37,456 nt of DNA from Myxococcota bacterium (GTDB lineage: Bacteria > Myxococcota > XYA12-FULL-58-9 > JALHOP01). The DNA is taken from contig JBGGMJ010000209.1 of assembly GCA_041288095.1 (NCBI GenBank), forward strand, positions 1 to 37,456, read 5' to 3'. A program made the position numbers and the translations under genes. Below are positions 26,258-36,975 of this stretch, piece by piece. Within the stretch, counting starts at the first letter, position 1. The number at the start of each line of letters is the position of its first letter. Under the pieces are notes generated by a model that did not search any database, was not told where the DNA came from, and saw nothing but the letters and a program-made list of their open reading frames with translations.

Positions 26258-26329
26258 GCGGCAAGGTACCGCGAAGCCAAGCCGGGAAGAAACTTGGCTT
26301 GGATTGGCTCCCCAGGTACTTGGTCGGTC

Positions 26330-28030
26330 GTGCAGCGTTGGCTCTGGCGACTGACTCCCGTTGCGGTTTCCCTCGTCGCCTTCCTATGGCCGCTTTGGTA
26401 CTGGAACCGCACACCCGGCGGTGACTGGGGCTATTTCGACAGTCTTGCCCTGGTGGTCCGCTCGAGCGTCCATAGCTACGGCCGCTTTCCCATGCACGAC
26501 CCCTGGGTCATGGGTGGAGCGGACCTCTTGGCCAATCCGCAAACGCGGATCTTCTCGCCTGTGGGTCTCCTCGACCAGCTCTTCCGCCCGCATCTCGCCA
26601 ACGTGGTGTCGCTGGTCGTCCACGGCATCCTGGGCGCCTGGGGCATGACCAGCGTCCTCACGCGCCTCGGTCACAACCGAATCGTCGCCGGGCTCGGCGC
26701 CATGATGTTCATCGGTGGCTCCTGGTTCATGCTGCACTACTGCGAGGGACACGTCCCTTACGGCACGATGCAGCTGCTGCCGTGGGTCGTTTACTGGCTG
26801 ATGGAGCTCGACAAGCCGTCGGCCACTCTCAAGCTCGCCGCGTTGCTCGCGCTCTTCCTGGTGGATGGAGGCATGTATGCCTTCATCTTCAGCGGCTACG
26901 CCGTGATCGTCCTCGCGGCGCTCGGGATGGTGCCGCTTCGCGGATTCATCGCCACCGTCAAGGCGCACCGACTGCTCGTGCCGGGCGCCGCGGTGGCGTT
27001 TCTCGGCGTCGCGTCGAGCAAGCTCGTGCCGGTGCTGGAGTCGCTGGGCGCGCGCAAGCTCACCATCGAACGCGCCACCATGGGTTGGAAGCTCGCCCTC
27101 GCGGCCTTCTACGACACCGACCAATGGTTCTTGAAGGCAGCGCGGCCACTCGACTGGCGCTTCCACGAGGTCGGTTGCTATCTCGGCTTCGCTGCAACCG
27201 CGCTCATCGTCGTGGCTCTCGCAAGGCCCCAGTTCGCGCGCGCTCAGTGGCGCTGGCTCGTCTTTGGGCTGGTCTTCTTGTGGATCGGCACCAACGCGCT
27301 GGCGCCGTTCAATCCGTGGGAGATCATCTCACGAACGCCGCTATTGCGGAACGCTCACGTTCAGAGTCGCAACTTCATCTGGCTCTACTTCGCATGGGTC
27401 GTGCTCGTCTGCGCGGCGGTGCGCTCGTTCCGCTGGAAGGCGCGAGTCACGCACGGTCTACTCGTCATCGCCGTGCTCGAAATCGTCGTGGTGTCGCACC
27501 GGCAATGGTTCCGCGCCATGCACAACGACGGCGGCCAGCACCGCTATCAAGCAACGGCGCGTGACATCACCCAGCGTGCCTGGAACTACACCGTCATGTG
27601 GGCAACCAAGCCGGAGCACTATTTCGCCGGCGGCTACGGCGCGCTCGACACTTACGAGCCCGCGCAAGTCGAGCGCACCGTCCGCTATCGCGGTGGCCCA
27701 GGGTATGCCGGAGAAATTCGCGTGGTTGGCGGCAACGGCGTAGCCGAGCTCCGCGAGGTCTCACCCGGCTACATCGCGATGAGCTACGACGGCACCACCC
27801 CCGCGATGGTGCGCATCAACCAGAACCGCCTCGCGGGCTGGGAAGTCGTCTCGGGTGAAGCCGAGTGCGACGACGACGACTACTCTCTCGACGTGAAAAT
27901 CGCGAGCCCGGGAGAAATCATCCTGCGCTATCGCCCGTGGTATTGGCCCGACATCGCGATGGCTTACGCGCTCGGTCTCGTCGTCTTCGTTGGCATGGCC
28001 CTGCGTTTGCGGCAGAAAGCAGCGACGTGA
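26330..28030 (+). CDS. polytopic membrane protein, YfhO/GT-C glycosyltransferase-like
   Basis: First loop GDWGYF...GRFPMHDPW.MGG..LLANPQ, an EGH motif, many TM helices, HE..CYLG, a periplasmic beta-domain and a final TM helix. Start is GTG 26330 (TTG 26294 alternative). Confidence 0.7.
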   Translation: MQRWLWRLTPVAVSLVAFLWPLWYWNRTPGGDWGYFDSLALVVRSSVHSYGRFPMHDPWVMGGADLLANPQTRIFSPVGLLDQLFRPHLANVVSLVVHGILGAWGMTSVLTRLGHNRIVAGLGAMMFIGGSWFMLHYCEGHVPYGTMQLLPWVVYWLMELDKPSATLKLAALLALFLVDGGMYAFIFSGYAVIVLAALGMVPLRGFIATVKAHRLLVPGAAVAFLGVASSKLVPVLESLGARKLTIERATMGWKLALAAFYDTDQWFLKAARPLDWRFHEVGCYLGFAATALIVVALARPQFARAQWRWLVFGLVFLWIGTNALAPFNPWEIISRTPLLRNAHVQSRNFIWLYFAWVVLVCAAVRSFRWKARVTHGLLVIAVLEIVVVSHRQWFRAMHNDGGQHRYQATARDITQRAWNYTVMWATKPEHYFAGGYGALDTYEPAQVERTVRYRGGPGYAGEIRVVGGNGVAELREVSPGYIAMSYDGTTPAMVRINQNRLAGWEVVSGEAECDDDDYSLDVKIASPGEIILRYRPWYWPDIAMAYALGLVVFVGMALRLRQKAAT

Positions 28031-28797
28031 CCGAGTTCGACTACAGCGGCATTCCCGTCGGCTTCTACGATCAGGTGGCGCGCGGCCAAGGCAGCGCCAT
28101 CCGCAAAGCCTGGCACCTGCAGAAGTTCCAGCGCATCGTCGACTGCCTGCCACGGGGTCCTGGCCTGTCGATCCTCGACGTCGGTTGCTTCGCCGGCACC
28201 TTCTTGTCGCTCCTCGACCTGGAGCGCTTCACGCGCCAGCTCGGCGTCGACATCCTCCCCGAGCAAGTGGCGTACGCCAACGAGCACTACGGCAACGCGC
28301 AGCGTGAGTTCCGCGCCATCGGTGACGTGAGCGACATCCACAACCTCGGTGAGACCTTCGACTGCGTCACCTGCATCGAGGTCATCGAGCACCTGACGCC
28401 GGAGATCATCAAACGCCTCATCGACAACGTCGCGCAGGTGCTACGCCCGGGTGGCGCCTTCGTGCTCTCGACGCCCAACTACGCGAGCACGTGGCCGCTC
28501 GTCGAGCTGCTCTTGAACCGCTTCTCCGACGTTTCGTACGAGGAGCAACACATCACCAAGCTCAACGCCTTCAACCTCGAGAAGAAGCTCGCCGGCATCG
28601 CCCCGAGCCTGCGGACGTGCTTCCACCTCGAGATGAAGACGACGACGCACCTCCTGACGCCGTTCCTCGCGCCTCTCGGCTTCGACGCCATCATGCGCTT
28701 GTCGGGCGCCGTGCCGCACAAGAGCTGGCGCGTCCCTTTTGGCAACCTTTGTCTCGCTGTCTTTGTCCGCAATAGCGATCCGGCGCCGAGCGGCTAG
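28027..28797 (+). CDS. class I SAM-dependent methyltransferase
   Basis: ILDVGCFAG, LGVDI, FDCVTCIEVIEHL and LRPGGAFVLSTPN. GTGA overlap with the upstream gene. Confidence 0.92.
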   Translation: MTEFDYSGIPVGFYDQVARGQGSAIRKAWHLQKFQRIVDCLPRGPGLSILDVGCFAGTFLSLLDLERFTRQLGVDILPEQVAYANEHYGNAQREFRAIGDVSDIHNLGETFDCVTCIEVIEHLTPEIIKRLIDNVAQVLRPGGAFVLSTPNYASTWPLVELLLNRFSDVSYEEQHITKLNAFNLEKKLAGIAPSLRTCFHLEMKTTTHLLTPFLAPLGFDAIMRLSGAVPHKSWRVPFGNLCLAVFVRNSDPAPSG

Positions 28798-30335
28798 GCG
28801 CGGTTCGCTTTCGCGAAGATCGCGCGAATCGCCTCGATGGTGTCCGCTTCCGCGGCGGACTTGTCCTCGCGATAGCGTTTGACGCGCGCGAAACGCAACG
28901 CGAAGCCGCTCTCGTACACCGTCGAGGCTTGGACGGTATCGAAAGCAATCTCGGCGACGAGCTCGGGCTTGACGTGCACGACGTGGCCCTCGCGGCCCAT
29001 GGCGTGCTCGAGGAACCACTTGGTTTGCCAGGCGAGCATGACGTCGGTCATGCCCTTGAAAGTCTTGCCGAGCATCGCGAAGCCGCCGTGCTCGGGGTCG
29101 CGGGCGCCGAGGTGAATGTTGCTCAAGAGCCCCTCACGACGGCCGCTGCCCCACTCCGCCGCCAGGACGACGAGGTCGAGCGTGTGTGCCGGCTTCACCT
29201 TGAGCCAGCCGGAGCCGCGCCGACCGGCTTCGTACGGCGCGTCGAGGGTCTTCACCATGACGCCTTCGAAACCACGCGCCACGGCGTCGTCGTAGAAGCG
29301 CTCGGCTTCGTCCGCCGAAGCGGTCACTATGAAGGGGACGCGCTGAGTCGGCGTGAGCAGGTCGGCGAGAGCGCGCTGGCGCTCGGCGTAAGGAGAGTCG
29401 AGCAGGTCGGCGCCGTCGACGTGCACGACGTCGAAGAAGTAGGGCGTGAGCGCCATCGCCTCGCGTTGAGCGGCCACGTCGAGCTTGCGGCCGAAGCGAC
29501 GCATGGTCACCTGGAAGGGCTGAGGCGAGCCGTCTTCGCGCATCGCCAGGACCTCGCCGTCGAGGATCAGCGACCGCGCGGGGAATCCGAGAGCTTGCTC
29601 GACCACTTCCGGTAGCCGTGCCGTGACGTCGTTGCCATCACGCGAGAAGATGCGCACCTGGTCGCCGTCGCGGTGCACCTGAATGCGCGCGCCGTCGAGC
29701 TTGAGCTCGACCGACGCTTGGCCGTGCGCAGCGATCGCCTCACCGACGTCCGCCGCGGTTTGCGCCAGCATTGGCTGCACCGGCGCGAGCAAGCGTAAGC
29801 GATACCCCGACACGCCGGAGCCTCCCTCACGTATCGCCGTAGCCGCGACCTCGCCGACCGCGGAGGCCAACATCACCCCGCGTCGAACCAGCGCCTCGTC
29901 GACGCCGCTGGCTTTGGCGATGGCGGCGATCATCACTCCCTCTTGGGCGCCCTGGCGCAGCTCGCCAATGAGCAGGCGCTGCAAGAAGCTCTGCTCCGCG
30001 GCCGTGGCCTCGCCCATGAGCTTGGCCAGTGCTCGCGCCCGCTCCTTCGCGGACCCCGCGCCCGACACGCCTGCGATGTGCGTGAACGCGACGTCGACGT
30101 CGCGGACCTCGAGGCTCGACTCGCTCGCCGCCCCGACCTCGCGCGCGGCCGAGACAGCGGCATAGCCGACGCCGATGCGCCCCTGCGGCACGATGCCCGC
30201 GAGGTAGTCGACGACGAGCGCGACCTGGTCGGGTTCCGTCCGCGTCAACAGACCGCTGATGGCGTCGACCTTCTGTAGTCGCGAGCGCGTGCCGGCGACG
30301 CGCTCGGAGGTCTCGACGACCGCGGCGAGCTTCAT
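28794..30335 (-). CDS. ligB: ATP-dependent DNA ligase (LigB-type, with N-terminal DNA-binding domain)
   Basis: QPMLAQ, motif I ELKLDGAR, ILDGEV, YFFDVV, EGVMVK, YEAGRRGSGWLKVKP and LRFARVKRYREDK. SD AAGGAG. Confidence 0.95.
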   Translation of the reverse strand: MKLAAVVETSERVAGTRSRLQKVDAISGLLTRTEPDQVALVVDYLAGIVPQGRIGVGYAAVSAAREVGAASESSLEVRDVDVAFTHIAGVSGAGSAKERARALAKLMGEATAAEQSFLQRLLIGELRQGAQEGVMIAAIAKASGVDEALVRRGVMLASAVGEVAATAIREGGSGVSGYRLRLLAPVQPMLAQTAADVGEAIAAHGQASVELKLDGARIQVHRDGDQVRIFSRDGNDVTARLPEVVEQALGFPARSLILDGEVLAMREDGSPQPFQVTMRRFGRKLDVAAQREAMALTPYFFDVVHVDGADLLDSPYAERQRALADLLTPTQRVPFIVTASADEAERFYDDAVARGFEGVMVKTLDAPYEAGRRGSGWLKVKPAHTLDLVVLAAEWGSGRREGLLSNIHLGARDPEHGGFAMLGKTFKGMTDVMLAWQTKWFLEHAMGREGHVVHVKPELVAEIAFDTVQASTVYESGFALRFARVKRYREDKSAAEADTIEAIRAIFAKANRA

Positions 30336-30357: not shown

Positions 30358-31611
30358 CTAGCGCCGCTGCTCGGCTCGTTCCTTCATCGCTTTCTTTTCG
30401 GCCTCGACGGCGTCCTTGCTCGCCTTCTTCTTGTTCTTGTCTGCTGCCTCCGCGGCCTTCGCTTCTTCGGCGTCCTTCTTCATCTCGCCTTCCATCTTCG
30501 CGGACGGCTTGTCGGCGATCTCGGGCCGCACGGTGCCGCCGATGCTCGCGAGCGACACGCGATTCTCGACGCCGGGCAAGATGGCCTTCAGGAAGGCGTT
30601 ACCGAGCAGCGAAAATATGGCGCCGCCTACGCTGACGTTGGGTTGATCGAGACGACCCTGGAACGTCACGCGCGTCGCCACATCGTCGGTGCTGCCGTTC
30701 TCGAGGATCGACGTGACGCCGGCGACGAACGCCTCCCAAGCGACCTCGAGCACGTTGTCACCTTCATCGTTGCCCTTGAGGTCGAGAACTTTCTTGCCGG
30801 AGATGATCGGCTTCACGTAGCCGCTGATCGAGTCACGGGCGACCGCGAACTCCGAATACATGCTCATGGTGCCCGCCTCGAAATCGAAGCCGGCGTAGGC
30901 GCGCGTGAAATCGGTGAGCTCGGTGAGCGGCAACCTGCGGAGGGCAACCTCGCCGTCGACGTCGGGATGGTCCGGCGCGAACATGTTGGCGCGGAAGCCC
31001 GCCTTGAGGCGGCCGGTTTCCTGGACCGACGCGGTCACCTCCCCCGTGGTCGGGCGCTTGTCGGCGTTGTCGCCGGGCCGCGTGCGAATGTCGCGCACCG
31101 TGACGTCGAGGTTCGCCAGATGCAGGTCGACCTTCGGGTTCTCGCGCTCGTCGAGGTACGAGAGGCGTCCGTTGACCACCTCGAACTTGTTGATCTCGAG
31201 AGCCACGAGCTCGTTCAGAGTTTCCCCGATGGAAGCCGGAGGCTCGGTGGTGCTCTCCTTCTTGGTCTTGGCGGCGACGAAATTCACCCGCGGTGACATG
31301 AGCTTCACGCGCGACGTGATCTTGCCGTGCAAGAGCGCCTTCCAGTCGACCATGATGTCGGTCTCCGGAATGGCGAGCAGTGGCTCCGCCTCGCGCCCGG
31401 CGTTGCGCTTGACGATACGCAGCCCGTCGAACTGATAGGCGCCGCGCCAAAGCGAGAGGTCAACGTCGTCGATATGCCCGTAATATTCGGGCATCGCCGC
31501 GAGCTTGTCGTTGAGGACGCGCTTGATGACGTGGGGCGCGACGACCCGCGCGATCACCAGCAGCGCGATGAAGATTCCAAGCCCAATCAAGGCTTTACGC
31601 TTCCTGGTCAT
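30358..31611 (-). CDS. DUF748/AsmA-like domain protein (417 aa)
   Basis: N-terminal TM helix (ALIGLGIFIALLVIARVVAP), YYGHIDDVDLSLWRG.Y, VDWKALLHG, AYAGFDFEAGT, SGYVKP, VATRV and LLGNAF. Lys/Glu-rich tail. Confidence 0.85.
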   Translation of the reverse strand: MTRKRKALIGLGIFIALLVIARVVAPHVIKRVLNDKLAAMPEYYGHIDDVDLSLWRGAYQFDGLRIVKRNAGREAEPLLAIPETDIMVDWKALLHGKITSRVKLMSPRVNFVAAKTKKESTTEPPASIGETLNELVALEINKFEVVNGRLSYLDERENPKVDLHLANLDVTVRDIRTRPGDNADKRPTTGEVTASVQETGRLKAGFRANMFAPDHPDVDGEVALRRLPLTELTDFTRAYAGFDFEAGTMSMYSEFAVARDSISGYVKPIISGKKVLDLKGNDEGDNVLEVAWEAFVAGVTSILENGSTDDVATRVTFQGRLDQPNVSVGGAIFSLLGNAFLKAILPGVENRVSLASIGGTVRPEIADKPSAKMEGEMKKDAEEAKAAEAADKNKKKASKDAVEAEKKAMKERAEQRR

Positions 31612-31704
31612 GCCTATTCCCCCACCATTTAGCGTAAGGCGCGAGACGCCGGTGGCAACGTCGACCTGCGCAATTTCCGCGATTCTGCTATGGTCTTGCG
31701 CCCC

Positions 31705-32724
31705 ATGACCTCCCGCCACGACACGCAACGCCTCACCATCGCCGACCGCACCAAGGCCATGGTGGCCCGCCCGAATATCGTTCCCGCCGCCATCGCCGGC
31801 TTCTTGCTGTGCATGCTCATCGGCGGCCTCATCTTGTTGCGCTCGCATCGCATGCGCGCGACGCCGGCCGCCGCGGAAGAAGTCGAGACCAGCGTCGGCG
31901 TCGTGAAGGCCACATCGACGGTCTACGCCAACACCCGCCGCTATGTGGGCCGCCTCGAACCCTGGGCGCACGCGATCGTCGGCCCCAAGACCCTTTCCGC
32001 GTATGTCGCGGCGGTCATGGTGCGGCCTGGTGACGATGTCGTGAAGGGTGATGTGCTCGCGACACTCGATTGTCGCAACGCTTTAGCGGCCGGCTCACAA
32101 CATCAAGCCCCCGAAAGCGCGTCGACGGCTTCATCGCGCGGCAGCGCTGACTGCACCTTTCGCGCGCCCTTCGATGGCGAGGTGGCGACCCGTACCGCGG
32201 ACCCCGGCACCTTCGTCGCTCCCGGTCAGGCCATCCTCACCTTGGTCGATCGTTCGACCGTCCGCTTGGTCATCGACGTACCCGAATCCGACTTTACCCA
32301 CGTCACGCCCGGCACCGCGGTGACCATCCGCTCGCTCGCGACCGGCGGTTCGGTCACCAGCCGCATCTCGAGGCGCGCACCCGCGGCCGACATGAACAGT
32401 CACTCGGTGAGCGTCGAGATCGACCTCACCGACGACGAGAAGCTCTTGCCCCTCGGCACGATGGCCGAGATCACCACGCAGCTCGGGGAGCCGGCGAGCG
32501 CCAGCGAAATTCCGGCGAGCGCGGCCAAGATCCGTGGCGACATCGCCACGGTCATGGTCATCGACGGCGACACGGTCTCGCGCGTGCGCGTCAAGCTCCT
32601 CGGCGAGCGCGACGGCAAGGTCTACGTCGAGCCGAGCCTGAGCGCCGGCACCCAGGTGGTCGTCGACAGCAGCAAGCAACTACGCGACGGCGATCACGTG
32701 GTCGTGCGCCAAGACGAGCCGTAG
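31705..32724 (+). CDS. efflux RND-type periplasmic adaptor (membrane fusion protein) with a short alpha-hairpin
   Basis: TM anchor, lipoyl halves VMVRPGDDVVKGDVLATLD and FRAPFDGEV, beta-barrel DVPESD, and a membrane-proximal region ending LRDGDHV. Alternative starts at 31690 and 31759. Confidence 0.85.
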   Translation: MTSRHDTQRLTIADRTKAMVARPNIVPAAIAGFLLCMLIGGLILLRSHRMRATPAAAEEVETSVGVVKATSTVYANTRRYVGRLEPWAHAIVGPKTLSAYVAAVMVRPGDDVVKGDVLATLDCRNALAAGSQHQAPESASTASSRGSADCTFRAPFDGEVATRTADPGTFVAPGQAILTLVDRSTVRLVIDVPESDFTHVTPGTAVTIRSLATGGSVTSRISRRAPAADMNSHSVSVEIDLTDDEKLLPLGTMAEITTQLGEPASASEIPASAAKIRGDIATVMVIDGDTVSRVRVKLLGERDGKVYVEPSLSAGTQVVVDSSKQLRDGDHVVVRQDEP

Positions 32725-35700
32725 ACGCGGCCCGCGGGCTGCGCGACCTTTGGCTCGCGAATCGAGCTCCGCAACGCTACAGCGGACACCGGCTGTGACG
32801 GCGGCGTCCACGGCACGGAGACCCGCGGCGCCACGAAGTCCGACGGCTCGTTGAGAGACTTGCCGCCGAAGGTCTCGCGATACTCCTCGCGCAAGATCTC
32901 CTGATACTTGTCGTAGGTGCCGTCGTCTTTCATGCGGTCGCGCACTTCGTCGCAGAGGCCGCCCATGATGCCGAGCCAGTTCAGGAGCGAGCCATCGATG
33001 GTCTTCATCGGCGAGGACTTCGAGCCGTCGTTGTTCACCGACTCACCGGCCCCCATGGAAGTCACGGCGTTGCGGGCCCGCAGCGTGTTGAGCAACCACG
33101 CGAGGCCCTCACGGCGCTCGGGCGTGTTGGCCTGCTCGAGCAGCAGCGAGAAGACGCCGTAGATGGCGTAGAACGGATAGTCGGTGGTCGACGAGTAGGC
33201 GATGCTGGGAATGCCGTGATCGCCCGCGTAGGGCACGATCGCTCCCTCTTGCGGACCGCTGTCGGGCGCGTTGATCGAAGCGCCGAAGCCGGGCTTGCCG
33301 CGCTCGACCGCGTCCTGCGTGCGCAGCTTCTGGCGGATGCGGAAGAGCGTGGCCCAGTCCTCTTGATCACGTTTGGGCATGATCAAGAACTCCCACTCTT
33401 CGTGGGGTGAGCCCCAGTAACCTTGCCAGGTGGTGCCGTGCTTGTGCTCGACGGCCTCCAGCTTGGTCTCGCTCCACACGTGCTTCACCTGCTCCGCGGT
33501 GAGGCCGGGATTGGCATAGAGCGACATGTAGTGGAGGATCATCGCGCCTTCGTGGACGCCGTGCGGGCCGCGCATGAAGGCGTCGCCGTCGTGCGAGGCG
33601 TACTTGGCGTTGGGATCGCGGATGTCCGAGATCTTCGCCTGGACACGCACCGCTTGCTTGTCTTCATCCCAGAAGACGCGCTTGACGTTCTTCGCCAGCT
33701 TCTCGTTCCAGGCCTTGTAGCGATCCGCCAAAGCGGTCTCGCCTTGCTGACGCAAGACGTGCTCCACCGCGAGCAGCGTGAACATCCACTCGCCGTTGTC
33801 GAGCGAAGGAACGTTCTTCTCCCAGTGCTTGTCGGCCGGCCCCAAACTGCCGTCGGCGCCGATCTTGATCCACGGCATGAAGCCCGCGTAGCCCGGGAAC
33901 TCGCGATCGAAGCGCTCGTAGCTATCCATCTTGCGCTCGAGGATCGCGAGCGCCTCGGCGCGCGGGTCGACATCTTTCCCCATGAGGCGCGCGGCGAGCG
34001 CGTCGCCCGTGAGGATCTTGGCGATGACGGCGACGTCCGTGCACTCCTTCGAGGTCGCGGTCAGACGACGGCGGCCCGAAAGCTCGCCCGTCTTGGGATC
34101 GAGATCGACGCCGTCGAAGGCAAGACCCGTCTTGAGGTCGCGCGCGGCGTGGAAGAACGGCGCTTCGTGATCGAAGAAATCCTCCACGAACGCTAGCGCC
34201 GCTTCCGGCGAGCGCAGCACGTCGTCGATGGTGTGGTTGAACGGGAAGCGAGGCGCCGCCGTGGTGGCGGACTCGCGGGCCTTGGCGGCGCTCAAGAGAG
34301 CCGCGTTGCTCCAGGTGAGATCGGGGGCCGAGCGCGGCGTGCCGTCGACCTTGTCGAATTGCTCGGGCAGCGGCAACACGTAGCCGCCTTTGCCGTCGGG
34401 AGTGATCTTCGCGTGACGCGCCACGCGGTTCACGAAGGCGTCGCCCTTGGCGACCAGCGCCGCGGCGGTTCGCGAGGCCTCGAGCGATCCCGGCGCGAAG
34501 CTTACGCCAGGCTGCAGGAACTCGCCATGCGTCAAAGCGGACACCAGGAACTCACGGTTGTCGGCATCGACGTCGAGGCCGTTCGTGGTGATGCTCTCGG
34601 CGACCTTGTAGCAGAGCTCCGCGAAAGCGAGCGTCAACATGTAGAACGGATTGCCGCCGAAGTAGACGTCGCCGTCGTAGCGGCCGATGGCGGTGCCTAG
34701 GCGCTTGCTGACGTCACCGTTCAGCGGGAAGAGCTGCTGGTCGCGAAGCTCGACGACGCGCGCGGTGGCCAAGACGCGGCTATCGATGCGGCCGCTGTGA
34801 ACGGCCGCGAGGATGACATTGCTGTCGAGATCGGTGGTCTTGCCGGTGTGACCGTCGCGCGCTTTGACGTCGAGGCTCGCGGCTAGGTACTTGCCGTTCC
34901 AGAACTGACCGCGCTCGGCATCGATGTCACGCGCCGCTTTAGCGTACACGGCGGCGCGGTCCGCGAGCTCCGGCACCTTCGACGCCGCTTGCAGAGCCGC
35001 GGCTTGCACCTCACGCGTGTAGTAGTGCTTGCCCGCGAGGGTCTCTTCCCAGAGGTCGAACGACAGCTTCGGCCAGACGTCGGCCACGTAATCGAGGTCG
35101 GTGCGCAGGGTTGCGATCACCTGCTCGCGCAGCGCCGGCGCGATGGGCTCGCCGAGCACATCGATGAGGGTCAGCGCCCGCAGCGCCGGACCGTCGGTCT
35201 GAGGCCGGCCCCAGTGGAACGGGTCGAAGCCGCCGTTGGGAAGCTCGCGCGGCTCGCCCAGACCGTGGCTTGCGTCCTTGCGCAACCAGCGTTCGGCCCA
35301 CTCGAAGCCGGGCGCTGGCTTGAGCGTCTTCGGGTCGAAGACCTCGGTGGCGACTCGGGCTTGGCGGCCGCGACTGAAAGCGACGTAGTCGGCGAGCGCC
35401 TCGGGGGTGTGGGCGACGAGCGCGCGCATGACGATGGCGCCGTCGCGGTCCCAGATGAAGCGGTAGTCGGGGTTGTCGGTCGCCGCGGCGATGACGCCGC
35501 CCTTCAGCGTCTGGGTTTCTTGGCCCGTGAGAGGTGACTTCTGCCCGGTGGGTCGGCCAACGTTTTCCAGGACTTGGCGCAGCGCGATGGGCGTCGCAAC
35601 GTCGAGATAGACCTCGGCCGCCGGGCGGTAGCTGACGAGGGCCGTGGCCCTAGGGGTAACGCGGGTCGCGGTGTCGAGGTGACGAGCCCGCGAGCGAGAC

Positions 35701-35768
35701 GGCGCCATGGCGGAATCCGCCCGAAGAAAGCCACCCGCAAGCTGTTTTGAGCCTGGCGTTACGCGCAT
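32694..35768 (-). CDS. two-domain glycoside hydrolase: GH15 glucoamylase fused to a GH162-like endo-beta-1,2-glucanase (1024 aa)
   Basis: N-half: PDYRFIWDRDGA, GLGEP, WGRPQTDGPALR, FDLWEE, IGRY.GDVYFGGNPF, LPEQFDK and SAPDLTWS, all fungal-type glucoamylase motifs. C-half: TATSKE, FPGYAGFMPW, VPSLDNGE, GYWGSPHEEW, ASIN and GIPSIA, matching my recollection of fungal GH162 SGL. SD TAAGGA lies 6 nt before ATG 35768. Confidence 0.85.
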   Translation of the reverse strand: MRVTPGSKQLAGGFLRADSAMAPSRSRARHLDTATRVTPRATALVSYRPAAEVYLDVATPIALRQVLENVGRPTGQKSPLTGQETQTLKGGVIAAATDNPDYRFIWDRDGAIVMRALVAHTPEALADYVAFSRGRQARVATEVFDPKTLKPAPGFEWAERWLRKDASHGLGEPRELPNGGFDPFHWGRPQTDGPALRALTLIDVLGEPIAPALREQVIATLRTDLDYVADVWPKLSFDLWEETLAGKHYYTREVQAAALQAASKVPELADRAAVYAKAARDIDAERGQFWNGKYLAASLDVKARDGHTGKTTDLDSNVILAAVHSGRIDSRVLATARVVELRDQQLFPLNGDVSKRLGTAIGRYDGDVYFGGNPFYMLTLAFAELCYKVAESITTNGLDVDADNREFLVSALTHGEFLQPGVSFAPGSLEASRTAAALVAKGDAFVNRVARHAKITPDGKGGYVLPLPEQFDKVDGTPRSAPDLTWSNAALLSAAKARESATTAAPRFPFNHTIDDVLRSPEAALAFVEDFFDHEAPFFHAARDLKTGLAFDGVDLDPKTGELSGRRRLTATSKECTDVAVIAKILTGDALAARLMGKDVDPRAEALAILERKMDSYERFDREFPGYAGFMPWIKIGADGSLGPADKHWEKNVPSLDNGEWMFTLLAVEHVLRQQGETALADRYKAWNEKLAKNVKRVFWDEDKQAVRVQAKISDIRDPNAKYASHDGDAFMRGPHGVHEGAMILHYMSLYANPGLTAEQVKHVWSETKLEAVEHKHGTTWQGYWGSPHEEWEFLIMPKRDQEDWATLFRIRQKLRTQDAVERGKPGFGASINAPDSGPQEGAIVPYAGDHGIPSIAYSSTTDYPFYAIYGVFSLLLEQANTPERREGLAWLLNTLRARNAVTSMGAGESVNNDGSKSSPMKTIDGSLLNWLGIMGGLCDEVRDRMKDDGTYDKYQEILREEYRETFGGKSLNEPSDFVAPRVSVPWTPPSQPVSAVALRSSIREPKVAQPAGRVYGSSWRTTT

Positions 35769-35822
35769 CGCATGTCCTTATTGGAGGCCAACGTTTTCGG
35801 CGTTGTTGAATGCTTGTTGCCT

Positions 35823-35838
35823 TGCTTCGGCAGTGCCA
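35823..35838 (-). promoter_or_regulatory. possible sigma54 promoter for the GH15-GH162 gene
   Basis: The minus strand reads TGGCACTGCCGAAGCA: a perfect TGGCAC and correct GG-N10-GC spacing, but AA in place of TT before the -12 GC. Confidence 0.35.
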
Positions 35839-35877
35839 GGCTCGGTAAACAGCGGCCACGCAGTCGGGGGGATTGCT

Positions 35878-36975
35878 TTGGCAATACGTTGGGTTCGGTG
35901 CGTTGTCGCGACCAGCGCTTTCCTGTGCGTGACGATGGCGGCCAAGGCGCAGGAAGCAGCCGCTGAGCGTGAGAAGCCGCCCGCGGTAGCGACCGAGCCG
36001 GTAGCTGCCGACAGTGACACGCGACCAACGCGTGGCACCACCGAGCCGGCGGCCAGCGACCCAACGGGCGTAAAACCAGGCATTTCAGCGGGTGAATCGG
36101 AGTCACCGCTCGGCAAGACCGACCAGCGCGAGCCACAAACCGAAACCCACGCCGAGCCGGTGCCCTTCGAGCTGCCGGCGCTGAACTGGAAACCCGAGTG
36201 GGCTCGGGTCGGGACCGGCAACTACGTCTTCATCGGCGCGGCGGCGGCGGTCTCGGTCGGCGCTTCGATCATCAGACCGCTCGGCAATCACAACCTCGAA
36301 GGGCCCATTCTCTTCGATGCGTCCGTCCGCCGCGCCCTTCGCTTCGACTCACTCAACGCCCGCTACGCCTCCCTGGATCTGTCCGACATCTTCTTGTCGC
36401 TGGAGATCACCTGGCCGTTCGCGGTCGACGCCTTGGTGATGGCCGGCGGCGTACGCCGCAGCCCCGACGTCGCCTGGGAGATGGCCGTCATCGACGCCGA
36501 GGCGGTCGCGCTCACCACCGCCGTGCACCAGATCACCACGCTCCTGGTCAGCCGGCCGCGACCTTACCTGGAAAACTGCGGCGACGAGCTGTCGCCCGAC
36601 TTGAATCTCTGCGTGCGCAACGGCCGCTATCGCAGCTTCTTCAGCGGTCACGCGGCCATGTCGTTCACGGGTGCGAGCCTCATCTGCGCGCACCGATTCC
36701 GTCACGAGATCTTCGGTGCCAAGGCCGACATCCTCACCTGCGCGACCGCTTACGTCGCGGCGGCGGCGACGGCGAGCATGCGTGTCATCGGCGACGTGCA
36801 CAACGCGAGCGACGTCATCACGGGCGCTGTCATCGGCACGGCGATTGGCCTCGCCGTCCCGGCGCTGCACTACCGCAGCTGGGACAGGACGAAACGCGGG
36901 GCTAAAGTAGGCCGGGATTACGAGATCTCCGTTTACCCGACGCAAAACGGTATCGGCCTCGCGGTGGTGCACTGA
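35878..36975 (+). CDS. PAP2 family phosphatase with N-terminal signal and low-complexity extension
   Basis: C1 SRPRP, C2 SFFSGH and C3 MRVIGDVHNASDV, plus several TM helices. The TTG start at 35878 follows GGGGGA and gives a signal-like N-terminus. Confidence 0.85.
   Translation: MAIRWVRCVVATSAFLCVTMAAKAQEAAAEREKPPAVATEPVAADSDTRPTRGTTEPAASDPTGVKPGISAGESESPLGKTDQREPQTETHAEPVPFELPALNWKPEWARVGTGNYVFIGAAAAVSVGASIIRPLGNHNLEGPILFDASVRRALRFDSLNARYASLDLSDIFLSLEITWPFAVDALVMAGGVRRSPDVAWEMAVIDAEAVALTTAVHQITTLLVSRPRPYLENCGDELSPDLNLCVRNGRYRSFFSGHAAMSFTGASLICAHRFRHEIFGAKADILTCATAYVAAAATASMRVIGDVHNASDVITGAVIGTAIGLAVPALHYRSWDRTKRGAKVGRDYEISVYPTQNGIGLAVVH

Follow-up and report, generated by a model that had tools for sequence, protein, structure and literature searches.

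The window analysed here, the 37,456-nucleotide contig JBGGMJ010000209.1 of the Myxococcota bacterium assembly GCA_041288095.1, encodes a 1024-residue protein in which a glucoamylase-like domain of glycoside hydrolase family 15 (GH15) is fused to an endo-β-1,2-glucanase-like domain of family GH162. The fusion is a genuine two-enzyme protein that is maintained by selection, and not a chimera. The reading that best joins the results, to which we assign a probability of roughly 60%, is that this selected GH15-GH162 protein, with predicted activities, substrates and location, serves as an intracellular or unconventionally exported bifunctional hydrolase for glucan turnover or salvage.

The open reading frame (ORF; 32694..35768, minus strand, as are all features of the protein given below) consists of 1024 codons plus stop, has six full-length orthologs and just three open codons upstream of its start. 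The window had been read before from its letters only (the sequence-only reading), and the single uninterrupted ORF with two enzyme-sized halves described there was recovered: it could be translated without an internal stop, and both halves were matched to families at a significance far above that of random matches. Likewise, the motif positions given for DLWEE (residues 238-242, 35043-35057), LPEQFD (residues 467-472, 34353-34370) and LDNGE (residues 656-660, 33789-33803) agree with codon arithmetic on the translation. The protein begins with an N-terminal tail (residues 1-48; 35625..35768) that is disordered and has no hydrophobic signal-peptide core. Its first residues M1, R2 and V3 are invariant across the fusions, whereas the rest is poorly conserved, and in the full-length AlphaFold model residues 1-46 have a predicted local distance difference test (pLDDT) score below 50. 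The tail is followed by the GH15 catalytic domain (residues ∼49-500; 34269..35624), the junction ESATTAA (residues 499-505; 34254..34274), the predicted GH162 endo-β-1,2-glucanase-like domain (residues ∼501-992; 32793..34268) and a disordered, partly conserved C-terminal tail (residues 993-1024; 32697..32792; ALRSS...GRVYGSS.RTTT). ESATTAA indeed lies between the halves, but it is not the short linker it was taken for, since AlphaFold places it in a helix (residues 481-503) that runs unbroken from the GH15 domain to the start of the GH162 domain with a block pLDDT of 89-95. In the model the two barrels are joined by this structured helix and not by a loose tether or floppy linker. A complex prediction of the N-terminal against the C-terminal half gave a score of 0.00, which is no verdict either way on packing of the domains.

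The C-terminal half could be assigned to GH162 both by sequence and by fold, which bears out its proposed homology to the Talaromyces founder of that family, TfSGL. In a phmmer search against all Protein Data Bank (PDB) chains, residues 505-988 matched positions 14-496 of the 505 positions of the TfSGL chain 6imu_A with an E-value of 4e-47. The precomputed Pfam label of this half is PF26157, of which no mention was found in the literature searched. In the full-length AlphaFold model, built on an alignment of 44 GH162-like sequences including one EukProt and one MMETSP sequence, this half had pLDDT values mostly above 90, and its top structural match in Foldseek was again 6imu_A (E 3.7e-28, target template modelling (TM) score 0.88, root mean square deviation 2.2 Å). 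Other β-1,2-glucanase families followed far behind (8xuj, E 3.9e-11; 5gzh, E 8.6e-8).

The catalytic residues of TfSGL were located by alignment to 6imu and 6imw. A single aligned column distinguishes 6imu, the wild type, which has E there, from 6imw, the E262Q mutant, which has Q. This sets the offset between chain and native numbering at 12, and E740 (VHEG; 33549..33551) sits in this column. The same offset places D446 at chain index 434, corresponding to D925 (KTIDG; 32994..32996), and H316 at H789 (SPHEEW; 33402..33404). According to the available part of PMC12102758, E262 is the general acid and D446 the general base of TfSGL, H316 is a GH162-specific histidine that is a phenylalanine in other SGL-clan families, and the position of the general base separates GH162 from GH144 and GH189. 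E740, H789 and D925 are invariant in the 44 GH162-like sequences, as are D657, E575, K574, W633, E790, E909 and T923. Thus, of the three acidic residues that had been put forward as catalytic, the one in HE (E740, equivalent to E262) and the one in TID (D925, equivalent to D446) are upheld, while the one in LD (D657) is invariant in the family and at most a candidate. Residues ∼501-992 are predicted to form a GH162 (α/α)6 domain with the catalytic set of TfSGL.

For the N-terminal half, the Pfam profile PF00723 (Glyco_hydro_15) matched residues 82-495 with an E-value of 1.3e-45 and 156.6 bits (cut-off 22), covering profile positions 16-426 of 427. Pfam recognised only this half, and a starch-binding module was not matched in the fusion protein. 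By phmmer against all PDB chains, residues 54-499 matched the fungal glucoamylases 2vn4 (E 7.9e-40) and 1agm (E 3.8e-38). E241, the first glutamate of DLWEE (35046..35048), falls on index 178 of chain 1agm_A, which is E179 of the mature enzyme at an assumed one-residue offset. This offset also fits E400, with which E469 of LPEQFD (34362..34364) was aligned, and the tryptophan that we take to be Trp120 of Aspergillus glucoamylase. E179 and E400 are given as the catalytic acid and base of the Aspergillus awamori glucoamylase in the available part of PMC4837477, and E241 and E469 are the predicted general acid and general base of the GH15 half. Together with the Pfam match, these alignments confirm the fungal-type acid and base motifs that had been pointed out in this half. 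Both glutamates are invariant in an alignment of 53 GH15 sequences. In 80 standalone GH15 relatives, 60 columns had a conservation of at least 85%; the fusion keeps 57 of these and deviates at A262 (G in the relatives), F375 (W) and L465 (G).

In the full-length AlphaFold model the GH15 half was poor, with blocks at pLDDT 40-60 and just seven covering rows; it was therefore refolded alone with 53 GH15 sequences. The refolded half reached a pLDDT of 86.4 and its best Foldseek matches were fungal glucoamylases, with the Aspergillus chain 1dog_A at an E-value of 2.8e-21 and a TM score of 0.74. The glucodextranase 1ug9 and a 5z3a-series 'Glycosidase' were also among the fold matches. The GH15 half has a fungal-type layout with neither an N-terminal β-sandwich, a feature of bacterial and archaeal GH15 enzymes, nor a carbohydrate-binding module, and residues ∼49-500 are predicted to form a GH15 (α/α)6 catalytic domain. 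The other GH15 protein of the same genome (contig C50) is of the usual bacterial trehalase-like type, TREH_N plus GH15. The closest standalone GH15 sequences found had 35-38% identity over the matched stretch, with the maximum of 38% for P0185. In the GH15 tree (FastTree, unrooted, only a handful of rows carrying taxon labels, which also applies to the GH162 tree below) the GH15 halves group together apart from the fungal rows, at the end of a very long stem (1.15 changes per site).

The fusion was not restricted to one assembly. Six other full-length proteins from other assemblies have the same architecture from the MRV start to the tail at 75-86% identity, and the fusion was identified in 4/4 genomes of the genus of the window (g1), one copy being cut by a contig end. 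With unchanged neighbours, it also occurs at three loci in metagenome-assembled genomes (MAGs) that bear the label Myxococcota or Bdellovibrionales. The junction is bridged by contigs of two soil-metagenome runs, over 33616-34317 with one mismatch in X1 and over 34071-34387 with no mismatches in X2, which argues against a chimera, although these runs may be source samples and hence not independent of the assembly. Ratios of nonsynonymous to synonymous substitution rates (dN/dS; Nei-Gojobori, three pairwise comparisons) lay at 0.08-0.09 in the GH162 half, at 0.10-0.17 in the GH15 half and at 0.6-0.9 in the N-terminal tail. Purifying selection acts on both halves, and their acid and base residues are invariant in all seven fusions. 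Both halves are probably active.

To place the fusion among its homologs, residues 500-1024 were used as query in an exhaustive phmmer search of 1.84 billion representatives. This yielded 424 GH162-like clusters at E ≤1e-3, of which 112 were at ≤1e-30. Among the best 150 of the 424, a GH15 domain was found in just one, P0005, which represents the fusion clade itself. A scan of Joint Genome Institute metagenomes gave four loci, all of them standalone GH162-like genes at 40-43% identity and no further fusion. Among 60 relatives from the phylum the fusion is confined to g1. A standalone GH162-like gene occurs in one genome of another family in this sample, and a standalone paralog with 59-60% identity is present in the genome of the window and in its congener G003. 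In the former this is a 543-residue protein on contig C136 (2093-3721, minus strand; L005/L015) with 60% identity to the C-terminal half; it also lacks a signal peptide and adjoins a hybrid histidine kinase and a T2SSE-type ATPase. No description of a GH15-GH162 architecture was found in the literature naming both families, which, judged mainly by titles and abstracts, consists of carbohydrate-active enzyme (CAZyme) inventories or unrelated work, and the available part of PMC13200403 mentions no such fusion. The rarity of the combination, as put forward in the sequence-only reading, is supported by these searches.

A FastTree phylogeny of 136 GH162-like domains recovered the seven fusions as monophyletic (support 99), inside a clade of 12 rows (support 100) that they share with five standalone proteins. 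The 12 rows are surrounded by standalone metagenome proteins with 39-44% identity, one of which carries a bacterial label (P0178, Eremiobacterota). Two of the sister standalones, P0008 and P0163, still carry at their start the counterpart of fusion residues ∼386-445. In this relic the terminal portion of the GH15 barrel is preserved with SFAPGS, but the EQFD base segment is missing; the simplest reading is that both proteins descend from a fusion that later lost most of its GH15 domain. Transfer of either half from a eukaryote to a bacterium is unsupported: the C-terminal half nests among standalone metagenome sequences whose one labelled row is bacterial, the N-terminal half lies outside the fungal rows, and from unrooted trees with few labels no donor can be named.

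GH162 is described as 'almost exclusively' eukaryotic in the available part of PMC12102758, and in this the sequence-only reading, which held the family to be mainly eukaryotic, agrees with the literature. The sequence databases, however, contain numerous bacterial homologs, and in uncultured bacteria GH162-like domains are common. By cluster label, GH162-like domains occur in Eremiobacterota, Auribacterota, Elusimicrobia, Omnitrophota and Colwellia (cluster proteins P0024, P0268, P0034, P0280 and P0178) and also in protists, and because these labels place the domain in several bacterial groups, the printed view understates the bacterial wing of the family. The Omnitrophota protein P0034 has 1788 residues; next to it in the tree is P0026, from a cluster (P0026/P0275/P0276) in which the GH162-like domains are parts of giant proteins 5253-6836 residues long. 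Other domain combinations were also observed. P0010 (1630 residues, metagenome) has a GH162-like domain with a Sec leader joined to a GH2 domain, and in P0011 (1254 residues) a GH15 domain of the fungal type (residues 845-1240) is preceded by the precomputed Pfam labels GH42 and GH35.

The genome of the window (5.85 Mb, 90% complete) encodes four OpgG/D paralogs (MdoG, GH186; C150:32592-34007, C170:10412-11815, C166:7570-8988 and C105:49565-50962) and OpgH (MdoH; L010:8683-10746, minus strand; NF003958, 857.8 bits, cut-off 419), and one OpgG/D gene is located close to the OpgH gene on the same contig. Since OpgH and four OpgG/D proteins are encoded, β-1,2-glucan is a polymer made by the organism itself. 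A glycogen-synthase-like match and a weak phosphorylase match were also obtained.

With respect to location, a Sec or Tat signal was not found in the seven fusions or in the five sister standalones by hydropathy and inspection, with no dedicated predictor. The maximum Kyte-Doolittle hydropathy of 12 residues within the first 60 was 0.60-1.37 in the seven fusions (0.67 for the N-terminal tail of the window protein), compared with 2.06-3.36 in homologs with obvious Sec leaders; several GH162-like homologs at 39-44% identity carry plain Sec leaders. Because no such signal is present, the fusion protein most likely is cytoplasmic or leaves the cell by an unconventional route. The disordered tails contain repeated short 'RV' motifs (MRVTPGS, TRVTP, GRVYGSS), and the paralog in the same genome has VGRVTRS. 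The tail motifs MRVTPG and GRVYGSS..RTTT were not found in any other protein of that genome, which makes it unlikely that the tails are a common sorting signal.

In the preferred reading, the GH162 half would attack β-1,2-glucan within the chain, using the substrate-assisted inverting mechanism known from TfSGL, and would act on β-1,2-glucans of the osmoregulated periplasmic glucan (OPG) type, either own or taken up. The GH15 half would remove α-linked glucose from non-reducing ends with inversion, as in other GH15 enzymes, acting on α-linked glucose in glycogen-type chains or in glucan fragments, and the whole protein would be an enzyme of glucan turnover or salvage. Turnover or salvage is favoured over the digestion of prey because the organism makes its own β-1,2-glucan.

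Several observations weigh against this assignment. OPGs are periplasmic, whereas the fusion protein looks cytoplasmic. MdoG was found in 7/61 genomes of the phylum sample, namely in 4/4 of g1 with three to four copies each and in three others with one copy and no GH162, while G004 has a GH162-like gene but no MdoG; the co-occurrence of OpgG/D with the fusion is a single lineage event and not a correlation. GH94 and GH144 were not found in the 90% complete genome, and no linked sugar transporter, β-glucosidase or phosphorylase gene was found among the neighbours of the fusion gene. Besides glucoamylase, GH15 also includes trehalase, glucodextranase and isomaltose glucohydrolase activities, and because of its long stem and the identity of at most 38% to standalone GH15 sequences, the GH15 half may have moved in specificity away from α-1,4 glucans.

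An unlikely, more specific alternative is that the fusion exists since one substrate needs both activities. In an α-1,6-cyclised β-1,2-glucan (CbGa), the GH162 half would open and shorten the β-1,2 ring, and the diverged GH15 half, which would then be no glucoamylase for glycogen or starch, would cut the single α-1,6 bond. According to bioRxiv 10.1101/2025.04.21.649730, treatment of CbGa with BtBGL and CpSGL yields glucose and a 'non-degradable glucopentaose', and since this glucopentaose is left after β-1,2-glucanase and β-glucosidase treatment, an α-cleaving step is missing that such an enzyme could fill. GH15 includes α-1,6-active enzymes, with 1ug9 and the 5z3a series among the fold matches of the GH15 half, which has kept its catalytic residues despite its long branch. 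In addition, the genus has three to four GH186 paralogs, and GH186 contains CbGa synthases (PMC11228985). However, when three of the four GH186 paralogs were aligned to XccOpgD (PDB 8x18), the W76/D343/R477 signature of CbG16a synthases was incomplete in all of them, the positions being G/E/T, Y/T/E and Y/L/Q. 8x18 has N at 379, being the D379N mutant of PMC11228985, and D342, D343 and E376 are at the numbers given there; the tyrosine linked to retained transglycosylation in the same paper is present in two of the three aligned paralogs. Moreover, GH15 enzymes are exo-acting and the α-linked glucose in such fragments bears a β-1,2 substituent, and the protein has no signal peptide while the substrate is periplasmic or extracellular.

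The sequence-only reading had proposed a role in scavenging the glucans of other cells, in which an exported enzyme of a predator or scavenger would digest the glycogen (GH15 half) and the periplasmic or cyclic β-1,2-glucans (GH162 half) of Gram-negative prey. This role has been weakened and is now improbable. The relatives are MAGs labelled Myxococcota or Bdellovibrionales, both halves look active from their sequence, the disordered tails could hold an unconventional export signal and many bacterial GH162-like homologs have Sec leaders. On the other hand, neither the seven fusions nor their five sisters have a Sec or Tat signal, the tails are common to no other protein of the genome, the adjoining adaptor is of an efflux type, secretion or uptake genes linked to the fusion gene were not found among its neighbours, and the β-1,2-glucan is endogenous. 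A predatory lifestyle is not established for the genus.

That just one half is catalytic and the other a binding or regulatory module is very unlikely. The divergence of the GH15 half on its long stem and the three altered family-conserved positions (A262, F375 and L465) would fit such a division, but all seven fusions have the same acid and base residues in both halves, 57/60 GH15-conserved columns are kept and dN/dS is 0.08-0.17 across the two halves. Finally, an assembly or gene-calling artefact that joined two separate genes, conceivable for a window from a 212-contig metagenome-type assembly, is refuted by the same uninterrupted architecture in six proteins from other assemblies and in three other genomes of the genus, by the contigs of two runs (possibly source samples) that bridge the junction with 0-1 mismatches, and by the structured helix across it.

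No evident glucan link was found among the neighbours of the fusion gene, but the genes for a PAP2-domain protein and an efflux adaptor are conserved in position. The divergent neighbour (35707..36975, plus strand) encodes the PAP2-domain protein (PF01569), with synteny conserved in L001-L003. As listed, this ORF and the fusion gene share 35707-35768, which covers 20 codons at the start of the latter. The alignment to L002 begins at residue 25 of the PAP2 protein, so its true start is probably near 35779, which would leave a very short divergent intergenic region. The convergent neighbour (31690..32724, plus strand) encodes an adaptor (membrane fusion protein) of resistance-nodulation-division (RND) efflux systems (TIGR01730, 149.4 bits) that is 87-89% identical in L001 and L002. 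A role of this HlyD-like neighbour as a type I secretion partner is ruled out, as the adaptor is of the RND type. Genes for an ATP-dependent DNA ligase, a DUF748 protein and a 578-residue protein without a Pfam match that is 85% conserved in L002 are located nearby; three nearby genes are listed together at 28794-30335 (minus strand), 30358-31971 (minus strand) and 26294-28030 (plus strand).

Both enzyme families are already known; new are their combination, the bacterial context of GH162 and the absence of an export signal. The fusion is conserved and probably doubly active, and it is limited to a single genus-level lineage among the uncultured Myxococcota of soil. The large bacterial wing of GH162 widens where to look for β-1,2-glucan degradation, and a predicted endo-β-1,2-glucanase without signal peptide in an OPG-making bacterium raises the question of a cytoplasmic β-1,2-glucan metabolism. 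In Xanthomonas and other bacteria, α-cyclised β-1,2-glucans serve in virulence and osmoprotection. Because gene fusions often mark enzymes of one pathway, the protein is a testable candidate for the last step in the breakdown of these glucans. If it did act on CbGa, the fusion would be a self-contained depolymerase for cyclic glucans and would point to a general, undescribed role of GH15 in β-1,2-glucan catabolism; alternatively, it would be a case in which the turnover of α-glucans is coupled to that of β-glucans in one cell.

Compared with known systems, the GH162 half has the clan fold and the conserved acid position in common with the GH144 β-1,2-glucanases (CpSGL, 5GZH) and other clan GH-S families. 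The similarity to these is limited to Foldseek E-values of 1e-7 to 1e-11 and 13-14% identity, and their general base is placed elsewhere than in GH162, as stated in the accessible part of the literature. Bacterial standalone GH162-like proteins (such as the paralog on C136, P0015, P0164, P0008, P0163 and P0178) share the same domain at 39-61% identity but, unlike the fusion, have no GH15 domain; the nearest of them, like the fusion, have no signal peptide.

The fungal GH15 glucoamylases (Aspergillus awamori/niger 1AGM, 1DOG and 3EQA; Hypocrea jecorina 2VN4) resemble the fusion in having a catalytic domain without N-terminal β-sandwich. Common to both are WGRPQxDGPALRA, DLWEE, GRYxxDxY and EQFD, with E179/E400 corresponding to E241/E469. 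The fusion differs from them by an identity of 26-28% in Foldseek alignments, by the absence of a starch-binding module (Pfam) and of a secretion signal, and by the position of its N-terminal half on a long stem outside the fungal rows of the GH15 tree; compared with the GH15 family consensus, W is replaced by F at 375 and G by L at 465. Both TfSGL and the fungal glucoamylases are secreted, whereas by hydropathy the fusion has no Sec, Tat or lipoprotein signal and thus does not look like a secreted CAZyme. TfSGL itself (Talaromyces funiculosus; PDB 6IMU, 6IMV and 6IMW) shows homology over the full length of the GH162 half, the same fold and the same acid, base and histidine. In comparison with this founder, the fusion has just 27% identity (Foldseek), its GH162 half belongs to a bacterial clade apart from the two rows labelled eukaryotic, and it is a bacterial protein without signal peptide that is joined to a GH15 domain.

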